A stretch of DNA of 64,000 nucleotides from NCBI RefSeq assembly GCF_055900595.2, contig NZ_CM148325.1, one strand, 5' to 3'. A program made the position numbers and the translations under genes. Below the pieces are notes generated by a model. That model saw only the letters and a program-made list of their open reading frames with translations. It did no database searches and was not told where the DNA came from. The number at the start of each line of letters is the position of its first letter. Position 1 is the first letter of the stretch. This document shows, piece by piece, positions 21,520-54,751 of this stretch.

Positions 21520-22383
21520 CTATTTTTTATGATAATCAACAATATCATGAATAATTATTTCATTTTCTGTTTCAGAATATAAAACTCTATCTCCCCCTCT
21601 TCCTTTACCACTTCCTGGTAAGTCGGCTGCTGATTTCCCTTTTAAATCACCATGTAAAGAATGCTGGTTTTTTCCTGACTCACCACGAGAAAGCATAATT
21701 TTAATAGCATCATAGGCTTCAGCTTGTTTTCCTTTGAGCGCATCCCCCTTCTTCGCCGCCAAATCCTCCTCTATGATGGTTTTCATTTGGGTAGGACATT
21801 TTTCACCTGCCAGCCCCCACGGGTCGCACCAACCCACCGGATTATGCACATAAGACTGCGTATCCAGCCCGCCGCTCAGTTTCAGCGGATCCTGGCTTAA
21901 ATACTGCCCCGTCCCGGCGTCGTAGTAGCGGTGTAAATTATACCACAGCCCGCTCTCCTCATCCTGCCACTGGCCCATGAAGCCCGCATCGCAGCTTTCA
22001 CGCTCACTGTCCGGCGAGTCGTTTGCAGCCAGCCCCCACAGGCTGCGGTGTTTCGTCCACACCTTCCGCCCGTTCGCGCAGTACATCTCCTGCGGCGCGC
22101 CGTCCGGGCCGGTCACTACCGGGTAAAAATAACTTCTGTCATCATTCGCCGCCCGGCTTTCCTTCGCCAGCAGTTCAAATCTGCCCCCGGTAGTGCCACT
22201 GCTCCCGTAGCGCCGGGCTGCCGTCTGCATAGCGTTTCTCACTTGTGGAAAGCGCCATCCCAAGCCACTGGTAGCGTACTTCGCTGATGGCGTGCGGGCT
22301 TCGTTTCCACGCTGCCCGGATAACGCAGCGTTTTGCCGTTCGTCTGCCAAAGGCGTCGTAGCTGTACTGCCACACTTCACCAT
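21520..22383 (-). CDS. rhs: Rhs C-terminal segment: end of Rhs core (DPxGL motif) plus YoeB/RelE-like toxin domain; out of frame with the upstream Rhs ORF
   Basis: Contains GLWYNLHRYYDAGTGQYLSQDPLKLSGGLDTQSYVHNPVGWCDPWGL (Rhs core end) followed by ~95 aa ending ...GKGRGGDRVLYSETENEIIIHDIVDYHKK resembling YoeB/RelE toxins; overlaps the main Rhs ORF in another frame over 22175-22383. Confidence 0.7.
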   Translation of the reverse strand: MVKCGSTATTPLADERQNAALSGQRGNEARTPSAKYATSGLGWRFPQVRNAMQTAARRYGSSGTTGGRFELLAKESRAANDDRSYFYPVVTGPDGAPQEMYCANGRKVWTKHRSLWGLAANDSPDSERESCDAGFMGQWQDEESGLWYNLHRYYDAGTGQYLSQDPLKLSGGLDTQSYVHNPVGWCDPWGLAGEKCPTQMKTIIEEDLAAKKGDALKGKQAEAYDAIKIMLSRGESGKNQHSLHGDLKGKSAADLPGSGKGRGGDRVLYSETENEIIIHDIVDYHKK

Positions 22384-25300
22384 CTGGTGTCTTTATCTCG
22401 CGCAGACGGTCGAAGTCATCCCAGCGGTAGCGCCACTCCTGCGGGCGAAAGCCGAGTTTTTGGTCGGTGCGCTTTGTCACCCTGCCGCAGGCGTCGTATC
22501 CGTAGCGGCTGTCACCGGCCTGGTTCACACATTCATTATTGTACTGGTGCTGCGACAGAATACCGTTTATCCGGCTTTCCGCTATCTGCTCATTGACCGT
22601 ATAGCGGTAGCGCTCTTCCTGTGCCGGACCACTGGCGTCCAGCCGCAGTACGCTGGTTATCTGGTCGCGGGCATCGTACTGGTAGCGCGTTTCCCGCTCC
22701 GTACGCGTTTTCGACCACACTTCATGCCCGGTCAGGCGGCCCGATTTATCCCACGCGTAACGGTGTTCGCCCAGCGGTCGCCACGATGCCACGCTCTGGT
22801 GGCTGCCTGCCAGCCGCTCTGCGCCCTGTTTTTGCCATGCCGTACGTCCGCAGGTGTCGTATCCCTGCTCCTGCATATAGACCGCATGGTTCAGCGGCGT
22901 CTGCGCCAGCCAGCTTTCCTCATCCTCCGGGCGGTAACGCCGATTTTTTTCAAGGCCCGCGGGGGAATGACTGAAGTCCATCCGGTGACCGTTGCTGCGG
23001 TAGCCCGTCAGAATGCCCGAAGCGTCGTATTCTCTCTGTGTTTCCCCGTCCGGCGTTGTGGTGCCAGTCAGCCTTCCGGCTTCGTCGTAACGGTACTCCG
23101 TGCGCTGGCCGTCCTGCTCTTCCGCCACCAGACGATGGCGTTCGTCCCACTCCAGTTTTACCTCACTGGTGAGCGTATAGCCTGCTTCACTGCCGTCGCT
23201 GCGCTCATACACCTGCGCACTCACCATCCGGTCATGGCGGTCGTACTGATAGCTGAGTTTCTGATGCTCGCCGCTGATGGTCGCCACCCGGCCATATTCA
23301 TCCCTCGCATAGCGCCATACGCTGCCGTCCGGGCGGTGTTTTTCTGCCAGCCGGCCCTGTTCATCACGGATATAGACGGTTCTGCGTCCCGACCAGTCCT
23401 CCTCCCCGGCCATCTGGCCCGCCGCATCGTAGTACAGCCGCCACTGCTGGTTGCCGCTGCGCGTAAGCTGCGTGAGCCTTGCGGCACCATCGTAGTCGCA
23501 AAGTATCCGCTGCCCGCCCGCGTCCTCCACTTCCCGCAGCAGGTCAAATGCCCCGTGGCGGTAGCGCGTGGTCTGGCCCATGGCCCCGGTGTGGAGAGTG
23601 ATTTTGCCTTCACCATCATAGCGGAAGGTTTCAGCGCCACCGTCGGCCCGGATTACTGCGCTCAGTTTCTCATGCGGGTTATCGGCACCGGGGCGGTACT
23701 GCCAGTTCACGCTGCGCCCTTCAGCATCCACCAGCCCCGTCAGCCGCAGCCAGCGGTCTTCCGTGTAATGGGTTGTGCGGCCTTCACCATCGGTATGGGA
23801 AAGCAGGCCACCGTGAGCGCTGTAGCTCCACTGTTCGTGGCTGCCGTCCGGGTACTGTATCTCCTTGAGCAGACCGTCTTCGGTATGACGGTACTGCCAG
23901 TTCTGCCCGTTCACCTCCCGGCGGATAAGATTCCCTTCGGCGTTATAATGGTACGCCGCCGTGGTGCGGTGGTCCTGGTATGCCGTAACCTGACCAAATT
24001 CATCCCACTGCCATTCACGTTTACGCCCGTTCTCGTCCGTTTCGCTCAGGATACGCCCGGCATAATCGCGTTTTATCTGAGTAATGCGCCCACCCGGCTG
24101 GCGAATACACAGCGGCTGGTCGTATTCGTTACGCTCCCATTCAGTGATACGCCCCAGCGGGTCACGCTGTTTTTTCAGCAGCCAGGACTCATCGAACCAC
24201 AGCGTGGTGGTGGCTCCGGTGGCATCGGTGTAATCGGTTCTGCGCTCCTCCGGGAAGTAGCGGAAGGTGTCGTTATACAGGCCTTCCTGTGTGCCTGTGG
24301 CAGTCACCCGGCCTTCATCGTCATAGCGCAGGTGGAAGTGCGTCGGGCCGTTGTCGCGCCAGGAACTCAGCCAGCCCTGTTCGGTATAGGTATAATGCAA
24401 CGCGCCATTAAAGCGGGTCTGCACATCGCTCAGTCGCTGTTCATCGCCGTGACTGATATAGTCATAGCGCACCAGCTCGCTGCCGTCTGACTCGTCGATC
24501 ACACGGAATATCTGCCCCTGCGGGCCACACATCACCCGCAGATTCAGGCCGCTGCTGTGGGTTACGTTTGTCAGTTGGCCGATGACGTTATAGGTGAAGC
24601 GAATTTCGTTGCGGTTGCGGTCTTTTATTGCCGTTAGCCGCAGGCGGCGTGCGCCGGGGGAGATGGGCGTAAAGATATAACCCAATTGTGAGTATTCGTC
24701 GAAGATAATAGCCCGCTCACGGTTTCCCAGGAGGCGATAGTGCGGGACAAGCAGGTTACGGCTACTGTATGGTGCCTGCTCCGTGGAGTAGGCCAGACAT
24801 AGCCCCTCAGCATCAAAGTAGGTGACGTTTTTCCCGTTGCAATCGAACTCCAGAAACTGCGACCAGTTACACAACCAGCGACTGCCCAGCAAACCACTAA
24901 CCGGATGTCGGCCTGTATAAGCACGTTTCAGCGTCAGCGGTAAAATATGCGGATAGTTGAAATCAGTTCGGTAATCCAGATATTCACCCGTTCCGGTATC
25001 CACCGGATCGCTGAACCCCTGACTGATACGCTCATTTGCGGCTCTGTTTAACTGCTTTGCTCCCCATAGAGCTGTTAACACTTCCAGACTTGATACAACA
25101 GATTGCTCCAGCACCGTCATATCGGCATTAATCGGCCCATACTGTCCGGTCGTCTTATCAGCCGTAATGGTTTTACATCCTTCCTGAATAACTGCCGAGC
25201 AGGTAATTTTATGGCCCTTACGCGCCAGCGGCAGGCTGTTGACGGAAATAATTTTGCTCCCTTCCACTATCTGTGGAGGAGGACTGCCCGGATCCTTACT

Positions 25301-25942
25301 ACATTCAACCGGATCAGTGACGCGAGCTACCGCTTTTCCTTCAAAAAAAACATTAGGAGAGCCTTCTACAATCTGTCCGGTTTCAGATGCCCAGCGGGAA
25401 CCAATTACCATCGCTGCGCCACCGACAAATCCACCAGCTAATCCCCCGGCCCCGGCAGCAACGGTGGCAGCCAGCACACCCAATGCCGCGCCCCCTGTAG
25501 CGACAACCAGAGCTCCCACTGCAATCCCTACAATAAGTCCACCGATTAACCCACCAATAGCACCCAGAAAGGAATTGTTATGAACAATGTGATGACCCAC
25601 ACACGCAGGTATATCTGTTGGGCCGGAAACTGCGTGATCTTTACCCCAGGTATCCATGAACCAGTCACCTGCTTTGGTGCCCAGCCATCCCCCCAGCATC
25701 CCGCCAACCAGTCCGGCAATCAAAGGGCCTCCAAATCCTGCAACAGCTTTGGCTATTCCGGCTGCACAGGTGTTTGCTGCTGCGGCTGCCAGTCCTACCT
25801 TTGCCGTTGCTCCCACCATACTGACAGCCATTATTCCAGTACTGGCAATATGTCCTGTGGTAGCAATACTCTCCACTGTTTCGGCATTACTGTCCCGTTG
25901 ATCCAGCTCCGCTAACTTCTCCTGCGCGCTTTTTTCCGTCAT
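22175..25942 (-). CDS. rhs: prePAAR-TMD-PAAR-Rhs T6SS effector, main ORF (YD-repeat shell)
   Basis: 1255-aa ORF: N-terminal region with Gly-rich transmembrane helices and PAAR-like segment (GSPNVFFEGKAVARVTDPVEC), then many YD repeats; stop at 22175 where another frame continues. Confidence 0.8.
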   Translation of the reverse strand: MTEKSAQEKLAELDQRDSNAETVESIATTGHIASTGIMAVSMVGATAKVGLAAAAANTCAAGIAKAVAGFGGPLIAGLVGGMLGGWLGTKAGDWFMDTWGKDHAVSGPTDIPACVGHHIVHNNSFLGAIGGLIGGLIVGIAVGALVVATGGAALGVLAATVAAGAGGLAGGFVGGAAMVIGSRWASETGQIVEGSPNVFFEGKAVARVTDPVECSKDPGSPPPQIVEGSKIISVNSLPLARKGHKITCSAVIQEGCKTITADKTTGQYGPINADMTVLEQSVVSSLEVLTALWGAKQLNRAANERISQGFSDPVDTGTGEYLDYRTDFNYPHILPLTLKRAYTGRHPVSGLLGSRWLCNWSQFLEFDCNGKNVTYFDAEGLCLAYSTEQAPYSSRNLLVPHYRLLGNRERAIIFDEYSQLGYIFTPISPGARRLRLTAIKDRNRNEIRFTYNVIGQLTNVTHSSGLNLRVMCGPQGQIFRVIDESDGSELVRYDYISHGDEQRLSDVQTRFNGALHYTYTEQGWLSSWRDNGPTHFHLRYDDEGRVTATGTQEGLYNDTFRYFPEERRTDYTDATGATTTLWFDESWLLKKQRDPLGRITEWERNEYDQPLCIRQPGGRITQIKRDYAGRILSETDENGRKREWQWDEFGQVTAYQDHRTTAAYHYNAEGNLIRREVNGQNWQYRHTEDGLLKEIQYPDGSHEQWSYSAHGGLLSHTDGEGRTTHYTEDRWLRLTGLVDAEGRSVNWQYRPGADNPHEKLSAVIRADGGAETFRYDGEGKITLHTGAMGQTTRYRHGAFDLLREVEDAGGQRILCDYDGAARLTQLTRSGNQQWRLYYDAAGQMAGEEDWSGRRTVYIRDEQGRLAEKHRPDGSVWRYARDEYGRVATISGEHQKLSYQYDRHDRMVSAQVYERSDGSEAGYTLTSEVKLEWDERHRLVAEEQDGQRTEYRYDEAGRLTGTTTPDGETQREYDASGILTGYRSNGHRMDFSHSPAGLEKNRRYRPEDEESWLAQTPLNHAVYMQEQGYDTCGRTAWQKQGAERLAGSHQSVASWRPLGEHRYAWDKSGRLTGHEVWSKTRTERETRYQYDARDQITSVLRLDASGPAQEERYRYTVNEQIAESRINGILSQHQYNNECVNQAGDSRYGYDACGRVTKRTDQKLGFRPQEWRYRWDDFDRLREIKTPDGEVWQYSYDAFGRRTAKRCVIRAAWKRSPHAISEVRYQWLGMALSTSEKRYADGSPALREQWHYRGQI

Positions 25943-25972: not shown

Positions 25973-26404
25973 TTATTTATCCTGTGGCATTCCAAAACAA
26001 AAATTCAATAATGCTCCCCGCATCGCTTTACGATCCTCCTCTGCCAGCGCCTGCGTTGAGGAATAGGTCAGCGTCAGTACTTGTCGCTCGTTCAGGATTA
26101 CCAGCAGCAACTGCTGTATCATCACCCCCTTGTTATCCCAGCTAAATTCCCAGTATTCCGCCGGGCGCTCCTGCACATGACAGCGTTCTTCTACGGTGAA
26201 CACCATTTTCGACAGTTCGGTACGGAATTTCTTTTTCTGCACCGCCAGATAGTCATCAAACTGCGCGCCTTCCGGCAATATTTCACGAGTGACAACTACA
26301 TTTGCTCCGGCAACCGCACTTAGTACTGGCGTCAGAATATTCATACTGCTGTCCTGCCAGTTTCCCGGCAGAGTGAAATGCCCTTCATTAATGAGATATT
26401 GCAT
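25973..26404 (-). CDS. eagR: DUF1795-family Eag chaperone for PAAR-Rhs effector
   Basis: 143-aa ORF between vgrG and the PAAR-Rhs gene, the canonical position and size of Eag chaperones. Confidence 0.7.
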   Translation of the reverse strand: MQYLINEGHFTLPGNWQDSSMNILTPVLSAVAGANVVVTREILPEGAQFDDYLAVQKKKFRTELSKMVFTVEERCHVQERPAEYWEFSWDNKGVMIQQLLLVILNERQVLTLTYSSTQALAEEDRKAMRGALLNFCFGMPQDK

Positions 26405-26436: not shown

Positions 26437-28656
26437 TTACTGTGGATTTAGCGCCAGATGGGTGGGTCCATCGAGGGTGATAGTGCCGTCTGAATTCATA
26501 ACAAGAGTGCTTTTTCCGACAGTCAACTTTATCTGCGTTGCTGCGGTAAGGTGTATCGCCCCGGTTTTTGACGTGATGGTGATATTCCCTTCTACCGTCT
26601 CCGTGCAGGTTCCCGTTTCTACCGTCACCTCGCGTTTACCCGTTTTCACCGTCAGAGACTGGTCGCCTTCCGTTACGGTAATATTCCGGTTGCCTTTGAT
26701 GGTTTCGGTATGCTTACCATCAACAAATTCCGTGCGGTCGATTTTTACCGTGGATGTTTCGTTATGAATGATGGTTTTCGTCCGATCTGCCTTTACCGTG
26801 TGTGTTTCGTTATTTTTCACGACGGTATTCAGATCTTTCTCCGCAAGAAACCTCACTTCTTCCGCCCCCGTTTTATCGTCAAAGCGCAGCATGTTTCCGT
26901 TGGTCGCCCCCCCCTGTAACGAGTGGCTGAATATCCCGCTCTGCGACGCCATGCCCGGTAGCCCCCACGGCGGCATGGTGTCCTGGTTGTAGGTGCGCCC
27001 CACGATAATCGGTAGATCCGGGTCGCCATTTTTGAAATCCACCAGCACTTCCTGGCCGATGCGCGGGATCTGGATCATGCCGAATCCTTTACCCGCCCAC
27101 GGATAGCTGACGCGGATCCAGCAGGAGCTGTTTTCGTCATTATTACCGTAACGATCCCAGCCAAACTGCACCTTCACCCGGCCATATTTATCCGTCCAGA
27201 TTTCCTGCCCTACCGGGCCGGTGACGATGGCGCTCTGCGGGCCTTTGGTGTGGGGTTTGCTCAGGGTTCGTTGTGGGCGGTAAACTTCGCGGGTGGGATG
27301 CAGTTCAAACGTGGTGACATAGGTAAAATGCTGATCCTGGCCGCTGTGCTGCGCGTTGTCCCGTAAAAACAGCGTGGTTTGTACCAACAGATATTCCTGA
27401 TTAATTTCTGCCGTCGGGTGATTCATCAACGTAAAGGTGTACCCGGTCATGAGGGTACGGATATGACCGGCCCCATGTGCCCGGCTGCCGGGGCTGCGCT
27501 GCGCTTCCATACGAATGCGCGTCAGCATCTCACCTTCGCCCGTAGTGAAGTAATCACCAGGCCATTCATAATGCTCATATTCAGCATGACCGGTATTACG
27601 CGGACTAGCCACGGTACTTTTAAGCAGCGAACGAGGCTTCATAAAATCAAAATCGTCCATCACCCACTTTCCAGTACGCAGTCTCTCACTGGCCGTAATG
27701 GTGTGGATAAATTCTTTGTCCAGTTTCAGCCCTTCCTGGTGCCACTCCACCAGTGGCGAGTCAGGGCACGCTTTATGACCATTGATGGCATCCGTCAGCA
27801 CCAGCGTATGGCAGTTCTCGCTGTGCTCAAACCACCAGTAGATTCCCCACTCCTGCATCAGGCGCTGGATGAAATCGAAGTCGGTTTCACCATACTGCAC
27901 CTGCCAGACGCGGGGTGGATAATTTTCCACCAGCCGCTTTTCCACCGGAAAGGAATATTCATCCAGTACTTCATCGAGAATATCCACCACGGTTTTGTTC
28001 TGGAACGCTTTGTAGTCGCTGGTATGGGTCAGCAGCTTCAGCCATGGCTCAATGCGTAATTCATACGTTACCGAACGGCCCTCATGGCCGACCACCCTCG
28101 CCGCCGTCACCAGCCCGCTGATATACCGTTTTCCGCCACCGTCCAGTTCGATACTGACGCACAGGTCTTTGCCTACCATGGGCTGAAGCGGCAGGTTGGC
28201 CGCGGGGGAAACGTATCCCAGGTTCAGGGCGTCCGGCGTTTTAAGCTGTACTGTGTAGGAAAACAGATTCCCAAGCCCTTCCGAACCATTCATGCCTGCG
28301 AACAGCAGCATCTGCGGCGGCACCGAACCACCACTTACTGTGACGTTATGCGCCCCCGGACCACCGGCTGCAAGCGACGCCGCCGCATCCTGAACTGCAC
28401 CAGCCATATCCGATATCCCTGCTGCTGCGGCGGCGGCTTGCGCAGCGGCTACTGCGGCTTTAACCAGACCTGACGGTTCCGGCAACGCACCAAACAGGTC
28501 CGCCACTGCCTGTTCTGCCATCTGCTCGGCGGCATCAGCTACATCGGTTGCGGCTGAACCTGTGCTCATACTGCCACTTTCGCCAGCTATTGGTGGTGTG
28601 GTGATGACGGGTCCACCGTTTCCAACTGGTTTATTACCCGTAGATACAAAACTCAT
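26437..28656 (-). CDS. vgrG: T6SS spike protein VgrG (TssI) with ~110-aa Ala/Gly-rich N-terminal extension
   Basis: 739-aa ORF with gp27/gp5-like regions (e.g. [15 protein letters not shown]) and C-terminal beta-helix repeats; canonical VgrG N-terminus begins after residue ~110. Confidence 0.9.
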
Positions 28657-28680: not shown

Positions 28681-29067
28681 TTAAAATCTAGCCCCTGGTG
28701 GCCAAAAAATATAAGTAATCACTCTCCATTGCCCGTCTTTATAATGAAACCAACATGTCAGATTCAAATCCCCCTGCAAATTCCAGAACATTTCCTTAAT
28801 AGGAACATTTTGAAATTCAGGATCTGTTATGCGATAAGTTTGATTCAAGCCGATATAATACTCACCAACAAATTTATATCGTGGCCTCACGAACTCATGA
28901 GCAGGCGGCCCATATTTCTTCATAAAAAAGATGTCATTACTTCCATCATGTATATCATTTTCTTCATAATATTTGGTGGATTGAGCAACTGCAGAAGGCG
29001 AGAAAACATTCACTGTAGTTATGTAAGTTATTGAAAGGAAAATCACTATAATACAGAAAAATTTCAT
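28681..29067 (-). CDS. Putative periplasmic immunity protein for the adjacent HExxH effector
   Basis: 128-aa ORF with N-terminal signal-like hydrophobic segment; overlaps effector stop; C-terminal half conserved with the paralog at 30776-31147 (PIKEMFW..GDLNLTC.FHYKDGQWRVI.Y.FWPPGA.F). Confidence 0.6.
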   Translation of the reverse strand: MKFFCIIVIFLSITYITTVNVFSPSAVAQSTKYYEENDIHDGSNDIFFMKKYGPPAHEFVRPRYKFVGEYYIGLNQTYRITDPEFQNVPIKEMFWNLQGDLNLTCWFHYKDGQWRVITYIFWPPGARF

Positions 29068-29765
29068 TTGGTTACATTCAATAAAGTAAATTTAGTTTCA
29101 GGCATTATGACATTCAACGTTATAGTTGCGTTTTTAAGGTATCGTTCCCGAAGCTCCATTCCCACATTCATCAACCCACTAATATCTCCAACATACGGAG
29201 ACGAAGAATCATAATCATCATCTAAGTAACCAAGTACATGTCCGGCTTCATGAGGTATATTTACTTGCAACGTATTATTACAGTTAATACATTTCGCTAC
29301 TTTTTCCAGGTCCGCTGAATCAACATGAACCGTACTGTTTTTAAAATCAACATATGTTCTTAAATCAGCACCAGGCAAAACCTTTGTTGCAATAACCAAC
29401 CAGTCTTCATTCTGAGATGCAGAAATTATTCTTACATCAAAAGGCAAAGCTTTACCCTGAAATTTTTTAGCGAACTCAGATTCACCGGAAACAGAATAAG
29501 TTATTTTCCCATTCCATGCCTGCTGAACAGATAAATATATCGCTCGCATAAAAATAGCTTTTTCCCATATAATCCAGTCATCTGTAACGGTATTATCTTT
29601 ATACCACTCATACTTCCATCTTATCACAGCCGTAATCGAACCAGTATTTTGATTTAATAAATACGTCCTCCTACCATCCTTATGTATAATGATATCGCCA
29701 TCAATATTTGTTTTTTCATAGTATTCGGCCAGCAAACTATTCTCATCATATTTAAGCTTGGTCAT
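29064..29765 (-). CDS. Putative T6SS effector with HExxH zinc-metallopeptidase-like motif
   Basis: 233-aa ORF, no signal peptide, contains NIPHEAGHVLGY; followed by overlapping signal-peptide ORF; sits between vgrG copies. Confidence 0.6.
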   Translation of the reverse strand: MTKLKYDENSLLAEYYEKTNIDGDIIIHKDGRRTYLLNQNTGSITAVIRWKYEWYKDNTVTDDWIIWEKAIFMRAIYLSVQQAWNGKITYSVSGESEFAKKFQGKALPFDVRIISASQNEDWLVIATKVLPGADLRTYVDFKNSTVHVDSADLEKVAKCINCNNTLQVNIPHEAGHVLGYLDDDYDSSSPYVGDISGLMNVGMELRERYLKNATITLNVIMPETKFTLLNVTK

Positions 29766-29831: not shown

Positions 29832-30751
29832 TTACGAGTATTGCCCCTTCAGCCGCAGCGCATCCACATACCGTCCTTCACTGCAGGGCAAGATTACGAA
29901 AGCCCGCCCCGCAAGGACTGACGCGAGGTAGTTTCTGTCCATGGCTGCTTTTATCATCTTACGTCTTAACCCTGCCTTGGTTTCGCCGTACTGCACCTGC
30001 CAGGCGCGGGGTGGATAATTTTCCACCAGCCGCTTTTCCACCGGAAAGGAATATTCATCCAGTACTTCATCGAGAATATCCACCACGGTTTTGTTCTGGA
30101 ACGCTTTGTAGTCGCTGGTATGGGTCAGCAGCTTCAGCCATGGCTCAATGCGTAATTCATACGTTACCGAACGGCCCTCATGGCCGACCACCCTCGCCGC
30201 CGTCACCAGCCCGCTGATATACCGTTTTCCGCCACCGTCCAGTTCGATACTGACGCACAGGTCTTTGCCTACCATGGGCTGAAGCGGCAGGTTGGCGGCG
30301 AGGGAGACATATCCGAGGTTCAGGGTGTCCGGGGTTTTAAGCTGTACTATGTAGGAAAACAGGTTTCCAAGCCCTTCCGAACCATTCATGCCTGCAAACA
30401 AAAGCAGCTGCGGCGGCACCGCACTACCACTTACTGTGACGTTATGCCCCCCGGACCACCGGCAGCAAGCGACGCCGCCGCATCCTGAACTGCACCAGCC
30501 ATATCCGAGATCCCTGCTGCGGCGGCTGCGGCTTGCGCAGCAGCTACTGCGGCTTTAACCAGACCTGACGGTTCCGGCAACGCACCAAACAGGTCCGCCG
30601 CGGCCTGTTCTGCCATCTGCTCGGCTGCATCAGCTACATCGGTTGCGGCTGAACTGGCGCTTACAGCACTACTTTCTCCGGCTATCGGTGGCGTGGAGAT
30701 AGCTGGCCCACCGTTACTGCCAGATTTATTACCCGTAGATACAAAACTCAT
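29832..30751 (-). pseudogene. vgrG: Truncated, frameshifted vgrG duplicate fused to H-repeat and tagF 3' remnants
   Basis: Two ORFs (30431-30751 and 29832-30419) match the first ~270 aa of the full vgrG; frame broken at a C-run near 30445-30455; 3' end reads ...[24 protein letters not shown] (H-repeat protein C-terminus) then ...[10 protein letters not shown] (tagF C-terminus). Confidence 0.75.
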
Positions 30752-30775
30752 GATATTTATTCCTTTAATATCGGA

Positions 30776-31147
30776 TTAAAATTTTGCGCCCGGCGGCCAG
30801 AAAAAATAAGAAATAACCCGCCACTGTCCATCTTTATAATGAAAAAAACATGTCAGATTTAAATCCCCCCGCAAATGCCAAAACATTTCTTTGATGGGGA
30901 TATTTCTGAATTCAGGATTCGTTGAGCGATAGACATTTTCAATCTCTATATAATACTCACCGACTAATTTATAACGAGGCTTTATAAATTCATACGCTGG
31001 CTGACCATAGTTATTTAATAGAACATTCTCTTCAACTCCATTATACACACCACTCGCATTCAGATAAGCATACCCAGGAATATCAGACATGCTATTTTTC
31101 GCCCCACCCACTATCAAAAAAATAATCACAGCGTATATTAGTTTCAT
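30776..31147 (-). CDS. Putative periplasmic immunity protein (paralog of 28681-29067)
   Basis: 123-aa ORF with N-terminal hydrophobic signal-like segment; C-terminal half conserved with the other immunity paralog. Confidence 0.6.
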   Translation of the reverse strand: MKLIYAVIIFLIVGGAKNSMSDIPGYAYLNASGVYNGVEENVLLNNYGQPAYEFIKPRYKLVGEYYIEIENVYRSTNPEFRNIPIKEMFWHLRGDLNLTCFFHYKDGQWRVISYFFWPPGAKF

Positions 31148-31160
31148 TTTTTTACGCTTT

Positions 31161-31882
31161 TCACAAAAAATTAGAACCCGGAACCATTCTATTTAACCGC
31201 TCAATGACATTTCCCATATAACGAGAGCGCAGTTCCATACCAATATTCATTAACGCACTGGCATCCCCGGAGAATGGTGTAGTTGCTTTATCTGCATCAT
31301 CACTATAGTATTCATCGGTAAGATATCCAATAATATGCCCAAGCTCATGAGACAGCCCCATTTGCTTAGAGCAAACTTTTGATGAACCAAGACATTTAGC
31401 TGCTGCAACTATATCTTTAGAGTCAAGTTCAACGTATCGACTATTCCAGACAATGGAACTCTGACGAAAACTATTTGGATCATCATTATCAATTTTAAAC
31501 ACCACCACATCCCAATACCCATGACGATCAGTCTGAATTATTTCTATTGTGAAAGATAAATCCTTACCATTAAACTTACTGACAAACTCAGACTTCCCAG
31601 AAACGGATAAAAAAACCTTATTATTCCATGTTTGATTAATGACAAAAATAACTTTTCCATGAAAGGCTTTTTTTCCATATCTGTCCAATCAGTTTTTGCA
31701 TCCCATCTTTTTATCCAATTATATTTCCATCTCAGCAACAATGAGATTGCACCATTTTCACGGTCAATTCTTAAATCTCCCCAGGCATCATTGTCCCTGA
31801 TATATCGTTTATCCAGCATTAAGTCGTCATAAGCATCGTATGCCTGCTGAATAGCCTCATCATGAGAGTCACCCATGTTCAC
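31161..31882 (-). pseudogene. HExxH-motif putative effector, paralog of 29064-29765, apparently frameshifted
   Basis: Two overlapping ORFs (31544-31882 N-terminal part, 31161-31688 C-terminal part with HELGHIIGY and LMNIGMELRSRY); frame break near a T/A homopolymer at ~31660-31690. Confidence 0.6.
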
Positions 31883-32068
31883 CTCCTTATATTGCTATAT
31901 ATCCAATAAACCTGAAGATGCTTGCTTACCCACCAACGCAGACGGGACCAAGGGTAGCCTGAAGTCAACAGATAGCAATCAACTTGAAGTTCATGGGGAT
32001 ATTTGTTTCCCCATCTACACGTTTATCGTCATATTTTTGTATAGCTATTCTCAGCATTCGTGGGTAGA

Positions 32069-32190
32069 TTATTTTTTTTCCAACCGCAGCGCATCCACAT
32101 ACCGCCCCTCGCTGTTCTGCTGCCACAACCAGCCCAGCCCCTGCTGCGCCTGCGTTAACATTTTTGCTAGCCAGCACGGTCACGGCAGGC
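32069..32190. repeat. Remnant of tagF 3' end
   Basis: Minus-strand reading gives [26 protein letters not shown], matching the C-terminus of the intact TagF at 33163-33260 ([31 protein letters not shown]). Confidence 0.75.
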
Positions 32191-32206
32191 AATTCTATGA
32201 CAGGTA

Positions 32207-32680
32207 CTACTCATCCGTACAACCCAGCCCCCGGCGCTGAACCACTTCACTGGCAAACGTAGCTCCGGTTTTTTTCATTATTCCTTTTTGTATTTTTTGC
32301 AGCGCGGGAAATGAGATTCTCCTGCATGAATCCTCTTCCCATATATCACCAGTTACAGGGCTAACTGAAAATAGTCCCCACACATCTGTCGCTCCGGCGG
32401 AAGGAGAATCATAACCTACCCCAAAACTAAAATACCCAGGATGATACAGGTTACCTTTTTTATCTTTCAGAGAACCGTCAAGAAAAAACCCAGACAATTC
32501 CACATTATATTTTTCATTTTTTAGTGAAAAAACCAATAATGCCTGCGCCTGTATTTCAGTAAGACCTGACTGGTTAACAGTCGTTAGATCAAACCGCGGC
32601 ACATTCCTGATAAGAATTTCAGCACAACAATTCACGGACACGACCATGAAAAGCAATACTGATATTAATTTACAGGACAT
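32207..32680 (-). CDS. Putative periplasmic immunity protein for the adjacent GH73-like effector
   Basis: 157-aa ORF with signal-like N-terminus MSCKLISVLLFMVVSVNCCA; overlaps effector stop. Confidence 0.5.
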   Translation of the reverse strand: MSCKLISVLLFMVVSVNCCAEILIRNVPRFDLTTVNQSGLTEIQAQALLVFSLKNEKYNVELSGFFLDGSLKDKKGNLYHPGYFSFGVGYDSPSAGATDVWGLFSVSPVTGDIWEEDSCRRISFPALQKIQKGIMKKTGATFASEVVQRRGLGCTDE

Positions 32681-33135
32681 GTTATTCTCCGCTTAACCAT
32701 ATTAATCACCCCCACTAACTCACTAGCATAACCGGTATGGCCGCCATTACTGTTTTTACCTGAATTAAAACCAGAATCAATCAATGCCTGCGCAAATTGC
32801 TCCGGAGATTTTTTATTTCTGACCGCATTACCAAATCGGATTGCAAAGGACTTTCCGCTAGTTGAAAAAGAGGTATAAGTGGCAACCCACACTTGATTAC
32901 TCCCCAGCGGGTGAACCTGTCCTGACTGTAAAGGTGCCGGACCATGCATGGAAAAGTAGTTATTGTATTCTGTCGCGATTCTACCCTGCCCGTAAAAGGA
33001 CTCCTTTGCAGCAAGCCCCAGGATATTTTCCACAGGCACATCAAGTTGCTTAGCGATTAATTCACATTCTTTCAGATATTGCTGTACAAACCTGACTGCA
33101 CCAGTGTTATTACAGGCTTTATCATAAGACCCCAT
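32665..33135 (-). CDS. Putative T6SS glycoside-hydrolase effector (GH73/FlgJ-like glucosaminidase motif)
   Basis: 156-aa ORF without signal peptide; LGLAAKESFYGQGRIATEYNNYFSMHG resembles the GH73 catalytic-Glu region (A-x-E-S-x-x-G ... NN-x-F-G) as remembered; directly downstream of tagF. Confidence 0.5.
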   Translation of the reverse strand: MGSYDKACNNTGAVRFVQQYLKECELIAKQLDVPVENILGLAAKESFYGQGRIATEYNNYFSMHGPAPLQSGQVHPLGSNQVWVATYTSFSTSGKSFAIRFGNAVRNKKSPEQFAQALIDSGFNSGKNSNGGHTGYASELVGVINMVKRRITCPVN

Positions 33136-33162
33136 GATTCACTACTCCTTGTCTGATTATTT

Positions 33163-33933
33163 TTAATGCGGCCGGATATCCAGCCGCAACGCATCCACAT
33201 ACCGCCCCTCGCTGTTCTGCTGCCAGAACCAGCCCTGCCCCTGCTGCGCCTGCGTCAGCATTTTGTCCGGCCAGCCCGGCCACGGCAGGTGGCGCACACC
33301 GGGCAGTTCCACTACCGGCACGTCCGGCAGGCCGGTGAGTTCCCGGCTACGCTGCGGTACACGTCGTAAGCCGCGTAGCCACTGCGCCCAGCGCGGCCCC
33401 GGTCGCCACATCGCCCAGAGCTGGTCTGTCTGCTCCGCCAGTCGACCGCAGCGTTCTGTCTGTGGTGAGACATGAGCTGCCGTCAACTGCGCCAGCCAGT
33501 ACAGCCAGCCCTGTGTGTCATCCAGGCTCTCTTCCAGCCATTCCCGCCCGACACGCTGGTAAATCACCAGTGGCCACGGCCTGCCCGTACTGTCACGCGA
33601 GGCGGTCAGCACCCCGGTCAGCCACTCATCGCGCCCGCCAATGGGGAGAAATCCCGGCGACAGCACAAAACTCCACGGCAATGGGTGGTGCTCCGGTAGT
33701 GCCGTTTTCTCACGTGGTGACAGGTGCATCCAGCCGTCATTTGTTCCGGCCTTCTCGGCATCCGCGCCGTCCGGCACCACGATATGCCGCCCCTGTCCCA
33801 GCCACGTCTGCTGGTTCAGCCACGCCTGCCACACCTGCCCTTCGTTCGCGCTCACCCGCCAGCGCACGTAGTCCCGCTGGTCCGGCAGTCTGCCGAACAT
33901 CGCCGGAGCCGATACCTCTGCCCGGCGCATCAC
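33163..33933 (-). CDS. tagF: T6SS-associated protein TagF
   Basis: 256-aa ORF translationally coupled to the tssM stop (ATGA overlap); region PWSFVLSPGFLPIGGRDEWLTGVLTASRDSTGRPWPLVIY resembles TagF as remembered. Confidence 0.7.
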   Translation of the reverse strand: MMRRAEVSAPAMFGRLPDQRDYVRWRVSANEGQVWQAWLNQQTWLGQGRHIVVPDGADAEKAGTNDGWMHLSPREKTALPEHHPLPWSFVLSPGFLPIGGRDEWLTGVLTASRDSTGRPWPLVIYQRVGREWLEESLDDTQGWLYWLAQLTAAHVSPQTERCGRLAEQTDQLWAMWRPGPRWAQWLRGLRRVPQRSRELTGLPDVPVVELPGVRHLPWPGWPDKMLTQAQQGQGWFWQQNSEGRYVDALRLDIRPH

Positions 33934-36900
33934 AGCGCTCGCTCCGGGCAGGCGAAGCGTTGCAATAGCCCGCGGTTCACCGGGTCAAAATCCCGTCCGG
34001 CGGTGATTTCCAGCACCACCCGCCGCCCGTCAAAACTGTACTCCACCTGCTGTGTTCCCCGTACCACCGTCTCCTGCGCGTTACCCGCATCCAGCAGGTG
34101 AAACAGCGCCCATGGCCCGTTAGTCAGCAACGTCGAGGTGTCCTGGCGGATGCGCGGGCTGGCGGTGATTTCCGCCATTGAGCCGTTGCGCGGCCCCGGC
34201 CAGTTCACTTTCAGCGGCCTGACCGGGCCGTGAGCGTAGCGAAGCACCTGGCCGTCAATGTCAATCACCAGTTCGGTGATGGCAGGGTCCATATCCACCA
34301 CCCGCACCTGCATCGCCCAGGAAAACTTTTTCCCGCCTTCCCCATTAAAAAAAACGCTGCGGATCTGTTTCGCCTCCTGAAACGGTGTCAGGTCCGGCCC
34401 AAGCAACGTCATGTTGCCTTCGGTCGGTTTGTAGCGCCACGGGTTGCTGGCGGTGTCCGCCAGTGGGGCCAGTTGCTTCGTCCAGAACGCATCCAGCACG
34501 CCGCCGCTGGCAAAGATATGGTTAAAATCGTCCGCGCTGACTTCCTGCGGGCTGTCGGTGAAGGGGTAGCGCCCGTCGATGGCGTCGCGGCACTCATCAC
34601 CGATCACCGCTTCCATCTGCGCGTTCAGCACTTCACCGGTGCCGGCGTTGATTTTTCGCGTTCCCTGCTGCGTGAGATCCAGCAGAATATTTTTCAGTGG
34701 CGCGGGCAGTTTTGCCGCCTCCAATTGCAGTTTATCCGCCGCAGAAATGCGGCCAGGTAATGTGCTCGCTGCCAGTGCACTATCAGCGATGGTGAGCTGG
34801 GTGTAATACTCATTGAGCATCGTCAGCAGCGAATTTAACTGCGGCGCGCCGCCGCCCTGCCCGCTGTCTGTCCGCCCGGAAACCACTTCCCGCAAGGCGG
34901 CGAAACGGTCATCCACCAGTGATTTCTCTAGCCGCTCTTCCGGGTGGATGTCCTGCAATAGCTTTGCCGTCTGCACTGCTTTTCCCACATTGCCGGAGAG
35001 CCGGTCCTGCGTGCGCTGGGCCATCTGCTTTTGTCTGGCCTGCGCATCCAGCGGCGGCACCAGCGTGGTCTGCTCCACCACCGCTTTACTCAGGCGCATC
35101 AGCGGGGAATCCGGCGAGGCCAGGGTACGCAGCACCTGAAGGTCATACGCCAGCCCGGGACTGCCGTCTTCCCCGGCACTGTTGATGCTGTGAATACTGG
35201 CCAGAAAATCCTGCCAGCGGCGGGCATATTCAGCCAGGTACAGGCGGCGTACCTCACGGGTAACCGGGAGTTCCTGCCCCGGCAACTGGCTCATCACAAT
35301 ATCCGTCGTTTTTTTTTGCGTGTTTTCCCGGCCCATCACCCAGGCGTCGTCCGCTGATGCGGCTGCGACAAACTCCGACAGCCGTTTGTCGAACAGTTCC
35401 CGGTAGCCTTCGCGAGTGAAGATGCCGGGCACGCCCCGATCCAGCGGCGCGCCATCCGTGCGGACAAAAACCGTTCCCGCATCCGCGCCCACAGCGCGAA
35501 CCAGCGAAAACTCCTGCGGTGCTTCGCTCTCCATGGAAGCCAGGGCTCGAGTGTAGATACGCTCGGTGCTGGTATGGCCGTCAAGGAAAGCTCGCGCCTG
35601 GCGGATCAGCCCCTCATCTTTTTCCCAGGGCAAATGCACCACGCGGCTGCCGTCAAACAGGGCATCGATATGCTCCAGCACGGCGGCGCGACCGCCGAAC
35701 TCCGCCACGCTGTCGCGGTTGCCCAGGTCGTTCAGCACCCAGGCGTGGATCTCCGCCGCGTTGTATTTATCCTCGTGGTCCTTATCGAGGTTCAGCAACA
35801 GATAAACATGCAGGGCGTCATAGGCGGCTTTGCTGTCCTGACGCGCAATCGCATCCGAAAGCACGTATTCCATGCGTTTCACCAGCGGTGGCAGCAGTAA
35901 CTGGTCCAGCAGACGGTCATACAGGGATGCGACGCTCTCCATCACCGGCGGAACGCTGTAAAGACCATAACACCAGGCCAGCGGCGGCGAGTCCGGGTCC
36001 AGTCCCGGCCATGCAGAGAGCGCCCGTGCCTGGTTCAGCAGGGCCGGAACAGGCTGCATAGCAGGTTTTCCGGTATAGGCTTTGACATCACCATCCAGTT
36101 GGGTCGTCCGGCTGGCGATTTCATTCAGATAACCGCTGTTCCCCTGCTGGCTACCCTGCATGCCCTGCCACAACCAGAAAGCCAGCGCCAGTACCAGCAG
36201 ATGCCCGCCAGTACGCAGCAGGCGATAACGCCAGGCCCATTGAAGATTCGGCTCCACCAGGTGCGCTTCGCGGAAGATAAACTGCGTCAGTAGATCGTGC
36301 AGGAAATAGCTGCGGTTGCCGTCCGGCAGGGTATGGGATGGGGAATCAGCCTTCCCTTTGATCGCCCGGACAAAACGCTGCCAGATGCCCGACTGGTCAG
36401 CCACGGCGTCTGCCTGCGCCTGCGCGGCGCTGGTAAAAAATACGCCGCGCAGGGTGTTGTTAAGCTGGGTGGCGTCAAATTTTGAGTCGAGGAAAATCTG
36501 CTCAATGGCTTCCAGCAGCGGCGCACCCAGCGCGGCAAATTCACGCGGGAAGCGGTAGAGCCGCTGGCGGCTTTGAAGGTCGTACTCTTCCTGCAACCGG
36601 GTATCCAGCCCCTGATCCAGCCGCAGCGTCAGGTTTGCCAGTTCCCGGCCACAGAGCGCATGCAGCGACTGCGGATCGCTGGCGTGACGCCTGCGGCTGT
36701 AAGGCAGGGTGAAGCCCCAAACCTGGGCGCGCAGGTGGCTGGTCAGCCCGTGGAAATACTCCGTAAAGCCCGGCAGCAGATCCATTTTGGTGACGACCAG
36801 ATAGACCGGAAAACGAATACCCAGCGTCTCCCGCAGTTCCGCCAGCCGCGCACGCAGGGCCGCACAGGCAGCCAGTCGTTCCGCCGGGGACTGCGCGGTC

Positions 36901-37796
36901 AGATCCGCCACGTTCAGCGTCAGGATCACACCGTTGAGCGGTGCGCCAGGGCGGTGCTTACGCAGCAGCCCAAGAAACCCCTGCCACTCCCCGGCGTTAC
37001 GCTGAGTCGCGCTGATTTCGCCGCCGTCATCGTGGCGGGCATAGCGCCCGGCGGTATCGATGAGTACAGCCTCGTTGGTGAACCACCAGTCACAGTGCAG
37101 CGTGCCGCCGCCCGGCACGGTGAGGATATGCGCGGTCTGCTCCATCTGCTCCGCCAGCGGAAACTGTAGCCCGGTGTTAAGTAGCGCGGTGGTTTTGCCA
37201 TCGCCGGGGCTGCCGATAACCATAAACCACGGCAGTTCGTACAGGAAGCGCTTCCCTTCCAGGACCTTACGCCAGCCGGGCAGGTCCACCCGCAGTTGTT
37301 TCAGTTGCCGGATGGCACGGGTGACAATATGGCTGACCGTGCGCAGGTCGGCTTTAATTTCCCCGGCCACCGGCACGTCTTCCCCGCGCGGATGCAGGAA
37401 ACGGCGCAGCAGTTGTTCATCCAGGCGCAGCGCCCGCCACAGTCGGTACAGGCCATAAAGCGCATAAGTCAGCAGGATCAGGCCGATAAGCGTCAGACGC
37501 AGCCACAGCGGCGCAAACGGGCGAACGTCACCGAAGGCCAGCAGGGGTGAAACAAAACCGATGACCAGGCACAGAACCGTTACGCCAATGATGCTCATCG
37601 ACCAGTTCACCAGCCACAGGGCGAGGAACATCAGTAACAGAACGATGGTGACTACCCGGCTCCCCACAGATGCCAGCGGATGCAGGGTATCAAACGCCAC
37701 CAGCGGCCCGATAAACCAGACCAGCAACGCCAGCATCACCACGCCGACAACGGCCAGCGCGCGGCGGGAAAACAGCATACTGAGAAATTTTTGCAT
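33930..37796 (-). CDS. tssM: T6SS membrane core protein TssM (IcmF)
   Basis: 1288-aa ORF with N-terminal transmembrane helices, Walker A (GSPGDGKTT) and long periplasmic region. Confidence 0.9.
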   Translation of the reverse strand: MQKFLSMLFSRRALAVVGVVMLALLVWFIGPLVAFDTLHPLASVGSRVVTIVLLLMFLALWLVNWSMSIIGVTVLCLVIGFVSPLLAFGDVRPFAPLWLRLTLIGLILLTYALYGLYRLWRALRLDEQLLRRFLHPRGEDVPVAGEIKADLRTVSHIVTRAIRQLKQLRVDLPGWRKVLEGKRFLYELPWFMVIGSPGDGKTTALLNTGLQFPLAEQMEQTAHILTVPGGGTLHCDWWFTNEAVLIDTAGRYARHDDGGEISATQRNAGEWQGFLGLLRKHRPGAPLNGVILTLNVADLTAQSPAERLAACAALRARLAELRETLGIRFPVYLVVTKMDLLPGFTEYFHGLTSHLRAQVWGFTLPYSRRRHASDPQSLHALCGRELANLTLRLDQGLDTRLQEEYDLQSRQRLYRFPREFAALGAPLLEAIEQIFLDSKFDATQLNNTLRGVFFTSAAQAQADAVADQSGIWQRFVRAIKGKADSPSHTLPDGNRSYFLHDLLTQFIFREAHLVEPNLQWAWRYRLLRTGGHLLVLALAFWLWQGMQGSQQGNSGYLNEIASRTTQLDGDVKAYTGKPAMQPVPALLNQARALSAWPGLDPDSPPLAWCYGLYSVPPVMESVASLYDRLLDQLLLPPLVKRMEYVLSDAIARQDSKAAYDALHVYLLLNLDKDHEDKYNAAEIHAWVLNDLGNRDSVAEFGGRAAVLEHIDALFDGSRVVHLPWEKDEGLIRQARAFLDGHTSTERIYTRALASMESEAPQEFSLVRAVGADAGTVFVRTDGAPLDRGVPGIFTREGYRELFDKRLSEFVAAASADDAWVMGRENTQKKTTDIVMSQLPGQELPVTREVRRLYLAEYARRWQDFLASIHSINSAGEDGSPGLAYDLQVLRTLASPDSPLMRLSKAVVEQTTLVPPLDAQARQKQMAQRTQDRLSGNVGKAVQTAKLLQDIHPEERLEKSLVDDRFAALREVVSGRTDSGQGGGAPQLNSLLTMLNEYYTQLTIADSALAASTLPGRISAADKLQLEAAKLPAPLKNILLDLTQQGTRKINAGTGEVLNAQMEAVIGDECRDAIDGRYPFTDSPQEVSADDFNHIFASGGVLDAFWTKQLAPLADTASNPWRYKPTEGNMTLLGPDLTPFQEAKQIRSVFFNGEGGKKFSWAMQVRVVDMDPAITELVIDIDGQVLRYAHGPVRPLKVNWPGPRNGSMAEITASPRIRQDTSTLLTNGPWALFHLLDAGNAQETVVRGTQQVEYSFDGRRVVLEITAGRDFDPVNRGLLQRFACPERAL

Positions 37797-38083
37797 TATT
37801 GTTCAGAACTCCATGCGAGAATCAGTAATAGCAAAATGCCGCAAGCTGAAAAAATCCTTCCAGTACGGGCTACTGAAAGAAAATAAAGAGCAATCTGAAC
37901 AATTATCAAAATAAAATAAATCAACATTTTGATTATTTCTCTGTTCCCATTTCCCTGAGGCAACGTTGTCATTGAAGGATCCATATCCTGCATCCATTGA
38001 TACTCATTCCCGGAAAAAAGCATGATGATGATCAGACCCATAATGAATAACAACCATCCTGATATCTGAATTATTCTTCTCAC
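37796..38083 (-). CDS. Small predicted membrane protein (2-3 TM helices), unknown function
   Basis: 95-aa ORF dominated by hydrophobic helices; between the 227-aa ORF and tssM. Confidence 0.45.
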   Translation of the reverse strand: MRRIIQISGWLLFIMGLIIIMLFSGNEYQWMQDMDPSMTTLPQGNGNREIIKMLIYFILIIVQIALYFLSVARTGRIFSACGILLLLILAWSSEQ

Positions 38084-38091
38084 GAAGACTC

Positions 38092-38775
38092 CTAATGGGC
38101 GATGAGTAAATTAGAGAAATGCAACCAGTTGTTGACAATAAAATTGCCATAGCTGGTATCTTCCTTTATTTTCTCCAGAGTAAGCGACATACCCCGGTTA
38201 TAACGGGCACCAATAATTCTTATCTGCTCTTTCGTCAGGTGTGGTAAGGAGGACTGAAATTCATCTCTTTCAGCTAATTGATAAAGATGTCTGGCCACAA
38301 GTTGAATATTAAAAATATCATGCTGGAGGCAATTTGCCAGTTCACGCAATTGAGAGGTATCCATTTTTGACTCATCAAGCCCAAGCGTTCTGGCTGCGGT
38401 TCGCAATTGCATACTCACTGCACCAAAAGATGTTTTTTCTGGTCTCGAAGTTATTGTGATATGTTCATCAATCCACTCAGGCCCACTCCAGTCAATAGTC
38501 CGAGCATCAAATGCCAGCATATCTACAATACTGGGATCCCCCCCGACTTCTATCCAACACACACCTGCCAGTAAAGGTGCTGGCAAATTATATGTATTGG
38601 CAGCCGATGTTATCAGAAGATGGTTATGTTTTACCCAGCCATCTTTGAAATAACGCCCAAACGGTACACCACCGCCCCATTTTTTTGGCGCTAATTTCCA
38701 GAAAAGAAATTCGGTCACGCCCCATACCGGTGAATGATTCGATGCATTGCAGTCCAGATTATTCATTTTTCTCAC
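38092..38775 (-). CDS. Hypothetical T6SS-embedded protein (227 aa), unknown function
   Basis: ORF overlapping the tssL stop; no signal peptide; no family recognised. Confidence 0.5.
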   Translation of the reverse strand: MRKMNNLDCNASNHSPVWGVTEFLFWKLAPKKWGGGVPFGRYFKDGWVKHNHLLITSAANTYNLPAPLLAGVCWIEVGGDPSIVDMLAFDARTIDWSGPEWIDEHITITSRPEKTSFGAVSMQLRTAARTLGLDESKMDTSQLRELANCLQHDIFNIQLVARHLYQLAERDEFQSSLPHLTKEQIRIIGARYNRGMSLTLEKIKEDTSYGNFIVNNWLHFSNLLIAH

Positions 38776-54674: not shown

Positions 54675-54751
54675 TGGCGGAACGGACGGGACTCGAACCC
54701 GCGACCCCCTGCGTGACAGGCAGGTATTCTAACCGACTGAACTACCGCTCC
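54675..54751 (-). tRNA. aspV: tRNA-Asp (GUC)
   Basis: Exact reverse complement of the E. coli tRNA-Asp sequence as remembered; downstream of dnaQ; T6SS island abuts its 3' end. Confidence 0.95.

Follow-up and report, generated by a model that had tools for sequence, protein, structure and literature searches.

Organisation of the tagF-vgrG slot

The effector-immunity repertoires of type VI secretion systems (T6SS) decide which strains coexist, and changes of repertoire matter for gut ecology and pathogen competition. Here, we analyzed the T6SS island of E. coli on a stretch of 64,000 nt from contig NZ_CM148325.1 (assembly GCF_055900595.2), referred to as the window, and compared it with further loci (L001 and following), about 35 in total. 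Between the accessory gene tagF and vgrG three effector-immunity cassettes are stacked in the window, and a copy of the tagF 3' end (tagF tail) is present ahead of each of them, as claimed in a preliminary description of the same stretch. By sequence comparison we could demonstrate the repeats, their common boundary, the polymorphism of the cassettes at this boundary and, in related genomes, crossovers inside the tails.

All genes of the slot, as well as the repeats and gene fragments described below, are located on the minus strand. The upstream core gene tssM (33930-37796), an open reading frame (ORF) of 1288 aa for the IcmF-type membrane subunit, is immediately followed by the intact tagF (33163-33933). 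An intact vgrG (26437-28656, 739 aa) represents the right conserved flank of the variable slot. Both tssM and vgrG (TssI/VgrG) are annotated in L001, whose record is 98.8% identical to the window. TagF passed the threshold of the TIGR03373 profile with 41.5 bits (cut-off 41.2; E=1.4e-10), and its homologues carried PF09867. According to the ORF order a DcrB-like gene (25973-26404) and an Rhs gene (22175-25942), both on the minus strand as well, follow behind vgrG, and tRNA-Asp genes were found at 54675-54751 and 63611-63687.

The order tssM-tagF-[effector/immunity]-vgrG-DcrB-like-Rhs next to tRNA-Asp is of the SPI-6 type (Salmonella pathogenicity island 6) and was the same in the Salmonella loci. 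The island of this aspV/SPI-6-type T6SS corresponds to SPI-6 and its tagF-vgrG slot is the variable region 2 (VR2), of which the slot also carried a known cargo, the Tge2/Tgi2 pair (PF01832 in effector homologues, PF21576 in immunity orthologues). The core genes had a G+C content of ~60% and the cassettes of ~35%, with the tagF-tail copies forming G+C-rich islands.

Cassette 1 consists of a Tge2-family peptidoglycan glucosaminidase gene (32665-33135), annotated as glucosaminidase domain protein, and a Tgi2-family immunity gene (32207-32680), whose orthologues carry the T6SS_Tgi2PP domain and are named "Tgi2PP family T6SS immunity protein" in L029. The effectors of cassettes 2 and 3, here named Eff2 (31144-31876) and Eff3 (29064-29765), both contain an HExxH motif. 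Their candidate immunity genes encode 123 aa with a signal-peptide-like N-terminus (30776-31147; conserved effector partner in L003 and L012) and 128 aa (28681-29067), respectively, with a nucleotide identity of 70% to each other. The HExxH effectors and several other cargo proteins had no match in Pfam or NCBIfam. When aligned to the intact 735-nt genes of L001 and L003, Eff2 was found disrupted, with one nucleotide missing from each of two homopolymer runs (A8 to A7 and T7 to T6, at ~31645 and ~31150); either the gene is truly a pseudogene or the homopolymers were misread during sequencing. Apart from these two frameshifts, both displaced cassettes of the window retain their effector and immunity genes.

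Copies of the tagF 3' end and their common boundary

The conserved coding sequence of tagF ends at 33181, whereas the codons behind it (33166-33180, DIRPH) and the stop codon are derived from the Tge2 cassette. The intact 3' segment (tail copy 1, 33181-33340) was found repeated downstream by repeat searches and alignments. Copy 2 is a decayed remnant of ~118 nt with an in-frame stop (32081-32198). Here, the repeat finder aligned 32079-32189 with 33179-33289 (111 nt, 89% identity), and weaker homology reaches to about 32198. The translation of 35 residues matched TagF (E=1e-16), and equivalents of copy 2 in L002 and L029 are labelled as partial TagF pseudogene by the NCBI Prokaryotic Genome Annotation Pipeline (PGAP). 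Copy 2 starts a few nt past the Tgi2 stop codon, and older decayed homology may extend to this stop.

Copy 3 (29850-29883) is limited to the final 34 nt of the conserved 3' sequence of tagF, which translate to 11 residues. Together with 32081-32114 and 33181-33214 it forms a three-copy repeat family of 88% identity, and BLAST comparison with other tagF tails gave E-values from 6e-9 to 3e-6. The similarity to tagF thus held on the nucleotide level, which had been named beforehand as the test. The third copy had initially been placed at ~29855-29905; this position had to be corrected, since 29884-29979 belong to an ISAs1-family transposase fragment. Chance or artefact as source of the repeats was rejected on account of the high significance of the matches and because 8 complete E. 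coli genomes show the same layout of three cassettes, which argues against an assembly artefact.

The three copies share one end point (33181, 32081 and 29850, respectively) directly after ...TATGTGGATGCGYTGCGGYTG (YVDALRL), beyond which the sequence is cassette-specific. In an alignment of 19 TagF proteins, including sequences of E. coli, Salmonella, Enterobacter, Pseudenterobacter and Snodgrassella, an 18-residue stretch through L251 was conserved across Enterobacteriaceae and was followed by 2-10 unrelated residues. Divergence began at the same nucleotide in 18 E. coli loci, four Salmonella loci, Citrobacter, Enterobacter and two unassigned enterobacterial loci. At least five unrelated E. 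coli cassettes start there, with more in Salmonella, Citrobacter and Enterobacter, so that the tagF-like stretches are indeed junctions of variable content. A conserved upstream gene abutting a variable module, with different modules sharing their start point, is also the layout of displacement arrays. Since every cassette supplies the last tagF codons and the stop, tagF itself has no stop codon that is conserved. The effector ORFs are separate from it and start 25-110 nt downstream of the tails. We think that the sharp common boundary is best explained by the last tagF codon under selection and that it need not be a recognition site.

Chi sites were considered as cause of the hot-spot and set aside. 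The Chi sequence GCTGGTGG is located at the boundary in two cassette types only, namely the commonest E. coli type (L004, ~4955) and that of Salmonella L022 (~4946). In both the boundary reads CGGCTGGTGG, a perfect Chi on the gene strand. None of the three tails of the window contained it.

Across the loci the remnants were 34, 52, ~54, ~118, ~160 and 263 nt long. The 3' part (last ~60 nt) of several remnants is nearly unchanged while the 5' part decays. Between genera, the third-codon-position identity of the tail was 75-85%, which is somewhat above most of tagF and similar to other conserved blocks. The preserved 3' part of the remnants, together with their position 25-110 nt ahead of the next effector, might indicate that the remnants are kept for a function toward the downstream cassette (promoter, transcript processing or translation) and that recombination is incidental. 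However, a promoter and terminator scan found no such site in the tails, with counts for the region at shuffle level, and the remnants are heavily decayed in L012, L027, the second copy of L026 and the third copy of L023 and absent in the Enterobacter locus L010. In addition, most of the tail sequence is missing from the 34-nt copy, and a kept 3' half would also be expected from gene conversion with the intact tail. We therefore regard a retained function as improbable.

The junction ahead of cassette 3 is composed of three pieces. The first is a frameshifted 5' fragment of vgrG (29980-30751, first ~772 nt), a duplicate of 27883-28652 that is annotated as partial pseudogene in L001. Its identity to the intact vgrG is 99% along one stretch of 300 nt (29979-30278) and 89% along another of 300 nt close to the 5' end of the gene, and L002 has an intact vgrG that is collinear with it as far as the truncation point. 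The second, which joins it to tail copy 3, is derived from the 3' end of an ISAs1-family (ISEc1-like) transposase gene (29884-29979, 96 nt); it covers the last ~88 nt of the coding sequence plus 10 nt, and thousands of E. coli genomes contain copies of 94-96% identity. A Chi site on the gene strand is located at 30023-30030, ~44 nt before the vgrG truncation point, and the same site is present in the intact vgrG at 27927.

This junction, here named vgrG'-ISAs1'-tail34, recurs in L001, L006, L007 and L028, and the upstream contexts of the latter three differ. In L008 an intact tagF is located directly ahead of the orthologous Eff3-type cassette, with the same downstream sequence. The truncated vgrG was displaced together with cassette 2. 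Because the join of the third unit runs through truncated vgrG and the ISAs1 fragment, remnants are left not only by tagF but also by a second flank, vgrG, and an insertion sequence (IS) was involved. The initial account of cassette 3 as preceded by a displaced tagF tail thus stands with respect to the 34-nt tail but had missed both the vgrG and the ISAs1 fragment.

Slot variants and crossovers inside the tails

In a BLAST survey of 5,426 complete E. coli genomes this tagF tail was present in 114, with one detectable copy in 102 and two copies in 12 genomes. Among E. coli we distinguished types A to E. Type A has the order tssM-tagF-Eff-Imm-vgrG (L004), type B tagF-Tge2-Tgi2-tail-Eff-Imm-vgrG (L002, L005 and L029) and type C tssM-Tai4-Tae4-tagF-Eff2-Imm2-vgrG (L003). 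Type D is that of the window (L001 and L028), and type E corresponds to type C with an additional vgrG'-ISAs1'-tail34-Eff3 unit (L006). About 28 genomes carried a decayed island of which only vgrG'-ISAs1'-tail34-Eff3-Imm3 is left beside tRNA-Asp (L007). Every cassette type of the window stack was also found directly behind an intact tagF, the Eff2-type in L003, L030 and L032 and the Eff3-type in L008, each time with identical sequence downstream of the boundary; likewise, the single cassette of L004 directly follows an intact tagF.

Cassettes 2 and 3 are homologous, and the stack could therefore have been formed in place, by tandem duplication of a tail-effector-immunity(-vgrG 5') unit through unequal crossing-over and subsequent divergence, with no foreign DNA. 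The identity of the immunity genes and the 99% identical stretch of vgrG would be in agreement with this, as would L026, in which two tandem Tge2-Tgi2 units are each followed by a remnant. However, the protein identity of Eff2 and Eff3 is only 35%, while each of them has copies of 95-98% nucleotide identity in other genomes, where these stand by themselves behind an intact tagF or in a different context. This indicates a stack built from different alleles rather than duplicated in place. Furthermore, cassette 1 is unrelated to cassettes 2 and 3, the ISAs1 fragment lies within the junction, and in the few loci compared the cassettes of one genome were not each other's closest relatives. The same argument was made against duplication for the Vibrio cholerae arrays by Kirchberger et al. 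(PMC5361080). Duplication in place is thus hardly probable for the window.

Recombination between the tails became visible when L029 (E. coli VCSW5, type B) was compared with the single-cassette loci L030 and L032. Their flanks are 99.1-99.4% identical over ~13 kb. The sole structural difference is one 1.1-kb unit, comprising Tge2-Tgi2 and one tail and bounded by the 111-nt repeats, and the alignment blocks overlap by exactly this repeat. The single tail of L032 is identical on its 5' side to the intact tail of L029 and on its 3' side to the remnant of L029, with the switch within GGGCTGGTTCTGGCAGCAGAA (tail positions 70-92). In L030 the switch is located further downstream, within GAAGGGCGGTATGTGGATGC (tail positions 98-116).

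A third chimera, present in L003, L006, L034 and L035, combines an intact-type 5' part with the 3' part of a window-type remnant and has its crossover at tail positions 70-80. It carries F236L at a residue that is invariant in the 19 TagF sequences, as would be expected if the tail had been taken over from a decaying remnant. Among the 18 loci sampled, three crossovers occurred independently, which demonstrates that the tails serve as substrates of homologous recombination. Judged from these alignments, the outcome of such a crossover would be the precise loss of a cassette or, read in reverse, a gain or swap.

Outside of E. coli, a species-wide scan based on the TagF alignment gave only 13 loci, and the Salmonella contexts were found through Tge2 homologues. 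In Escherichia sp. E1V33 (L009) three tail copies were found, the remnants preceding displaced cassettes. The Salmonella loci L022-L025 contain a remnant between Tgi2 and the next effector and further decayed copies downstream, and L027 has one decayed remnant. According to an alignment of the post-Tgi2 junctions, the remnant begins at a distance of ~160 nt from the end of tagF. The tagF sequence at this point is ...GATGA(A)GCACCGGTAG..., and the Tgi2 gene terminates in ...GATGA(A/G)TAG. The shared GATGA suggests a join at microhomology. E. coli and Salmonella seem to have this junction in common and to differ by later internal deletions. In Citrobacter amalonaticus (L012) a decayed remnant is located between a TseH-like and an Eff2-type cassette.

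In Snodgrassella alvi App4-8 (L014), whose TagF is 43% identical to the query, a 263-nt duplicate of the tail (91.6%) follows the first cassette. Strain Nev4-2 (L013) lacks the extra cassette and carries the second cassette of L014 directly after tagF. This tail duplication is independent of the enterobacterial ones.

With a fixed boundary nucleotide and the order repeat-cassette-repeat the array resembles an integron-like site-specific system, in which the tail would be the attachment site for a dedicated recombinase moving tail-plus-cassette units. A finding in Enterobacter sp. ENT03 (L010) also looks as if a unit had moved. Here, a 52-nt tail remnant (2401-2452) is located between tssL and tssM, ~7 kb upstream of the tagF 3' end, and directly precedes an unannotated two-gene module, neither protein of which matched Pfam or NCBIfam. 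The remnant is 92% identical to the tails of the window and L012 and 93% identical over 46 nt to that of L010 itself. However, no integrase or recombinase ORF was present in or beside the tagF-vgrG slot, neither among the window ORFs nor in the annotated E. coli loci, and the only trace of a mobile element is the 96-nt ISAs1 fragment at one junction. Moreover, remnant lengths vary between 34 and 263 nt, the crossovers occurred in three different intervals instead of one point, and the fixed boundary is explained more simply by the last selectively constrained tagF codon. We consider such a system very improbable.

Scars at other gene boundaries were noticed as well. The insertion of Tai4-Tae4 between tssM and tagF has a duplicated junction (L003 5402-5552 and 7005-7155; also L006, L008 and L031), with ~60 nt of decayed tagF 5' sequence after tssM and ~45 nt of decayed tssM 3' sequence before tagF. 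This is the same kind of scar at another gene boundary. In the tssL-tssM region of L029 (11647-11976, between the Tldi-like gene and tssM) a Tlde1 cassette is followed by a ~56-nt 3' remnant of a 95-aa immunity gene, a gene that occupies this position in the window, which points to displacement at the tssL-tssM slot too. A tail or tssL-tail duplication was not found in this variable region, L029 showing only the 3' remnant of the older immunity gene. In the window the tssL-tssM interval contains a two-gene module (38092-38775 and 37796-38083) with no tagF tail ahead of it. One of its products, a protein of 227 aa, shares 63% identity with the first cassette behind tagF in Snodgrassella alvi (L014 9752-10429), so that the same type of cargo is found in different slots in different taxa.

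In L028 (isolate 23S01245-7) a class 1 integron fragment (intI1, dfrA17) and IS1 (12088-14151) are located just upstream of tssM, which is annotated as frameshifted; this integron is unrelated to the tagF-vgrG slot. ARAGORN called a tRNA-His of 94 nt at 52276-52369 (plus strand) in the window, which overlaps long ORFs (50610-52493, plus; 52391-53101, minus) and looks doubtful.

Proposed origin of the stack and comparison with known systems

We propose, with a probability of roughly 75%, that the left edge of the slot is fixed in tagF, that additions of cassettes duplicate the tail, and that the tails subsequently recombine with each other. The edge is a fixed nucleotide after codon L251, each cassette bringing the last 2-25 codons and the stop. 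Ordinary allele exchange would use homology arms in tagF (left) and vgrG (right) and would replace the cassette, leaving one tail and no scar. The majority of genomes with a single tail (102 of 114) fits such plain homologous exchange. Since homologous exchange alone leaves no remnant, each stack needs one rare illegitimate join.

Occasionally, a new cassette would thus arrive together with a tagF 3' segment and enter upstream of the resident tail by an illegitimate join. The cassette already present would keep its old tail of 34-263 nt, and the cassettes would end up between direct repeats of the tagF tail. The simplest account is homology-facilitated illegitimate recombination, in which the incoming DNA would pair via tagF or vgrG while its other end joins at a microhomology. 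A join upstream of the resident tail would duplicate the tail and leave the old cassette whole; a join inside the old effector would allow only the immunity gene to survive, as in L010. Recombination between the direct repeats could then remove a cassette precisely, and the reverse reaction or an exchange anchored on a remnant could add or swap one.

The junctions could be mapped from the Tgi2 stop to tagF at ~-160 nt (possible GATGA) and from vgrG nt ~772 through the ISAs1 fragment to tagF at -34. For the window, this would suggest an old Tge2-Tgi2 addition, common to other Escherichia and probably to Salmonella, that left the ~118-nt remnant. In a separate event the ISAs1 fragment would have linked the truncated vgrG to the final 34 nt of a tagF tail, which would have put a third tail-effector-immunity-vgrG unit behind the second. 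The preliminary description had proposed that cassettes are swapped in by homologous recombination anchored on the tagF 3' end. It is partly supported: the shared boundary and the chimeric tails confirm tagF as anchor, so that it was largely right in this respect, but it was incomplete on the third copy and on the origin of the remnants, as displaced tails require the additional illegitimate join.

Several observations weigh against our proposal. The sample is restricted to ~35 loci, and within Escherichia just two founding duplication events are visible. The Tgi2/tagF microhomology amounts to only 5-6 nt and was read from decayed sequence. We infer the illegitimate join behind each duplication, as well as the RecA dependence and the direction of the events (loss or gain). 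The better-kept 3' half of the remnants could mean gene conversion, but also some function. Chimeric tails could also come from remnant-anchored exchange with foreign DNA instead of intrachromosomal deletion, although both alike require a crossover in the tail.

Finally, four modules follow tagF in L010 with no clear tail remnants between them. Here, Tgi2 runs directly into the 3' part of an older truncated effector, behind which an orphan immunity gene and a short 5' fragment of vgrG are located; this is classic displacement of the V. cholerae type. Upstream of the TseH-like cassette of L010, the trace of a tail consists of a 10-nt exact match and weak similarity only and was treated as unproven. 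Tail retention is therefore one outcome among several and not a rule. Variable cargo that begins right after a tagF 3' end, the pattern to be checked according to the preliminary description, was seen in E. coli, Salmonella, Citrobacter and Enterobacter, but is not universal, as shown by these L010 modules.

A more far-reaching possibility is that the tagF 3' end is itself a selected recombination handle travelling with the cassettes, and that the slot works as an integrase-free, RecA-driven cassette array whose units are excised as circles, reinserted, moved and exchanged between genera. The Enterobacter 52-nt tail between tssL and tssM, the post-Tgi2 junction shared by Escherichia and Salmonella, the third-position identity of the tail and the recurrence in Snodgrassella would fit this idea, which we nevertheless consider rather unlikely.

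The repeats of the tagF tail offer a concrete and testable mechanism for the variability of the SPI-6/aspV slot, a hot-spot that has been noted but left unexplained. They are a simple annotation marker of cassette boundaries and of displaced, possibly still protective, modules, and partial TagF pseudogenes in genome records are accordingly informative scars and not noise. The finding does not overturn current ideas. In agreement with the preliminary description, no earlier account of tagF remnants or of tagF as recombination anchor was found in the literature searched. The published descriptions of the SPI-6 variable regions catalogue cargo and do not mention tagF or its remnants, and tagF is not mentioned in a large E. 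coli T6SS survey and a preprint on the T6SS of Shiga toxin-producing E. coli either. Some of the tail remnants are already annotated as partial TagF pseudogenes by the NCBI pipeline but, as far as we found, have not been interpreted before.

The slot shares with VR2 of Salmonella SPI-6 (Blondel et al. 2009; PMC10469887) the order tssM-tagF-[Tge2/Tgi2, Tlde1-type, TseH-like, HExxH modules]-vgrG-Rhs at tRNA-Asp, and tail remnants are present in Salmonella (L022-L025) as well. The cause of the VR2 hot-spot was called unclear, as no mobile elements flank the region (PMC10469887). Like integron arrays, the slot contains linear, promoterless cassettes that are bounded by repeats, the newest being nearest to the conserved end. 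Unlike these, it has no integrase, its repeats are pieces of a protein-coding gene with variable length, and there is no fixed crossover point.

For the T6SS of V. cholerae, sequential displacement of modules was described together with a model of homology-facilitated illegitimate recombination (Kirchberger et al. 2017, PMC5361080). In both systems a conserved gene upstream of the variable module is the homologous anchor, new modules enter at this anchor while older ones shift downstream, plain homologous replacement predominates over the rarer stacks, and the stacked modules come from different strains and not from duplication. However, V. cholerae usually loses the old effector and only orphan immunity genes pile up, whereas the window keeps whole pairs. 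Here, 34-263 nt of the anchor gene are duplicated and give direct repeats that recombine, and the crossovers between them are directly visible. Furthermore, the anchor is the accessory gene tagF and not vgrG, tap-1 or PAAR.

A second parallel is the C-terminal displacement of Rhs and CdiA with its orphan modules (Jackson et al. 2009; Poole et al. 2011; Koskiniemi et al. 2014, as cited in later papers). There, displaced modules carry a piece of the conserved upstream sequence that allows recombination between main and orphan copy, with a switch in the toxin expressed as the effect. The displaced modules of our loci likewise keep such a piece, which recombines with the main copy. In Rhs/CdiA, the conserved piece lies within the toxin ORF and recombination makes a new fusion protein. 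In the slot, by contrast, it is a part of tagF, which is a separate gene, each effector is a free-standing ORF that has a start codon of its own, and only the last few non-conserved tagF codons and the stop change. New in the tagF-vgrG slot are therefore a repeated anchor that comes from a separate accessory gene, the retention of whole effector-immunity pairs, and repeats that visibly mediate the loss of single cassettes; the logic is otherwise that of displacement in Rhs and contact-dependent inhibition (CDI) systems and in V. cholerae.

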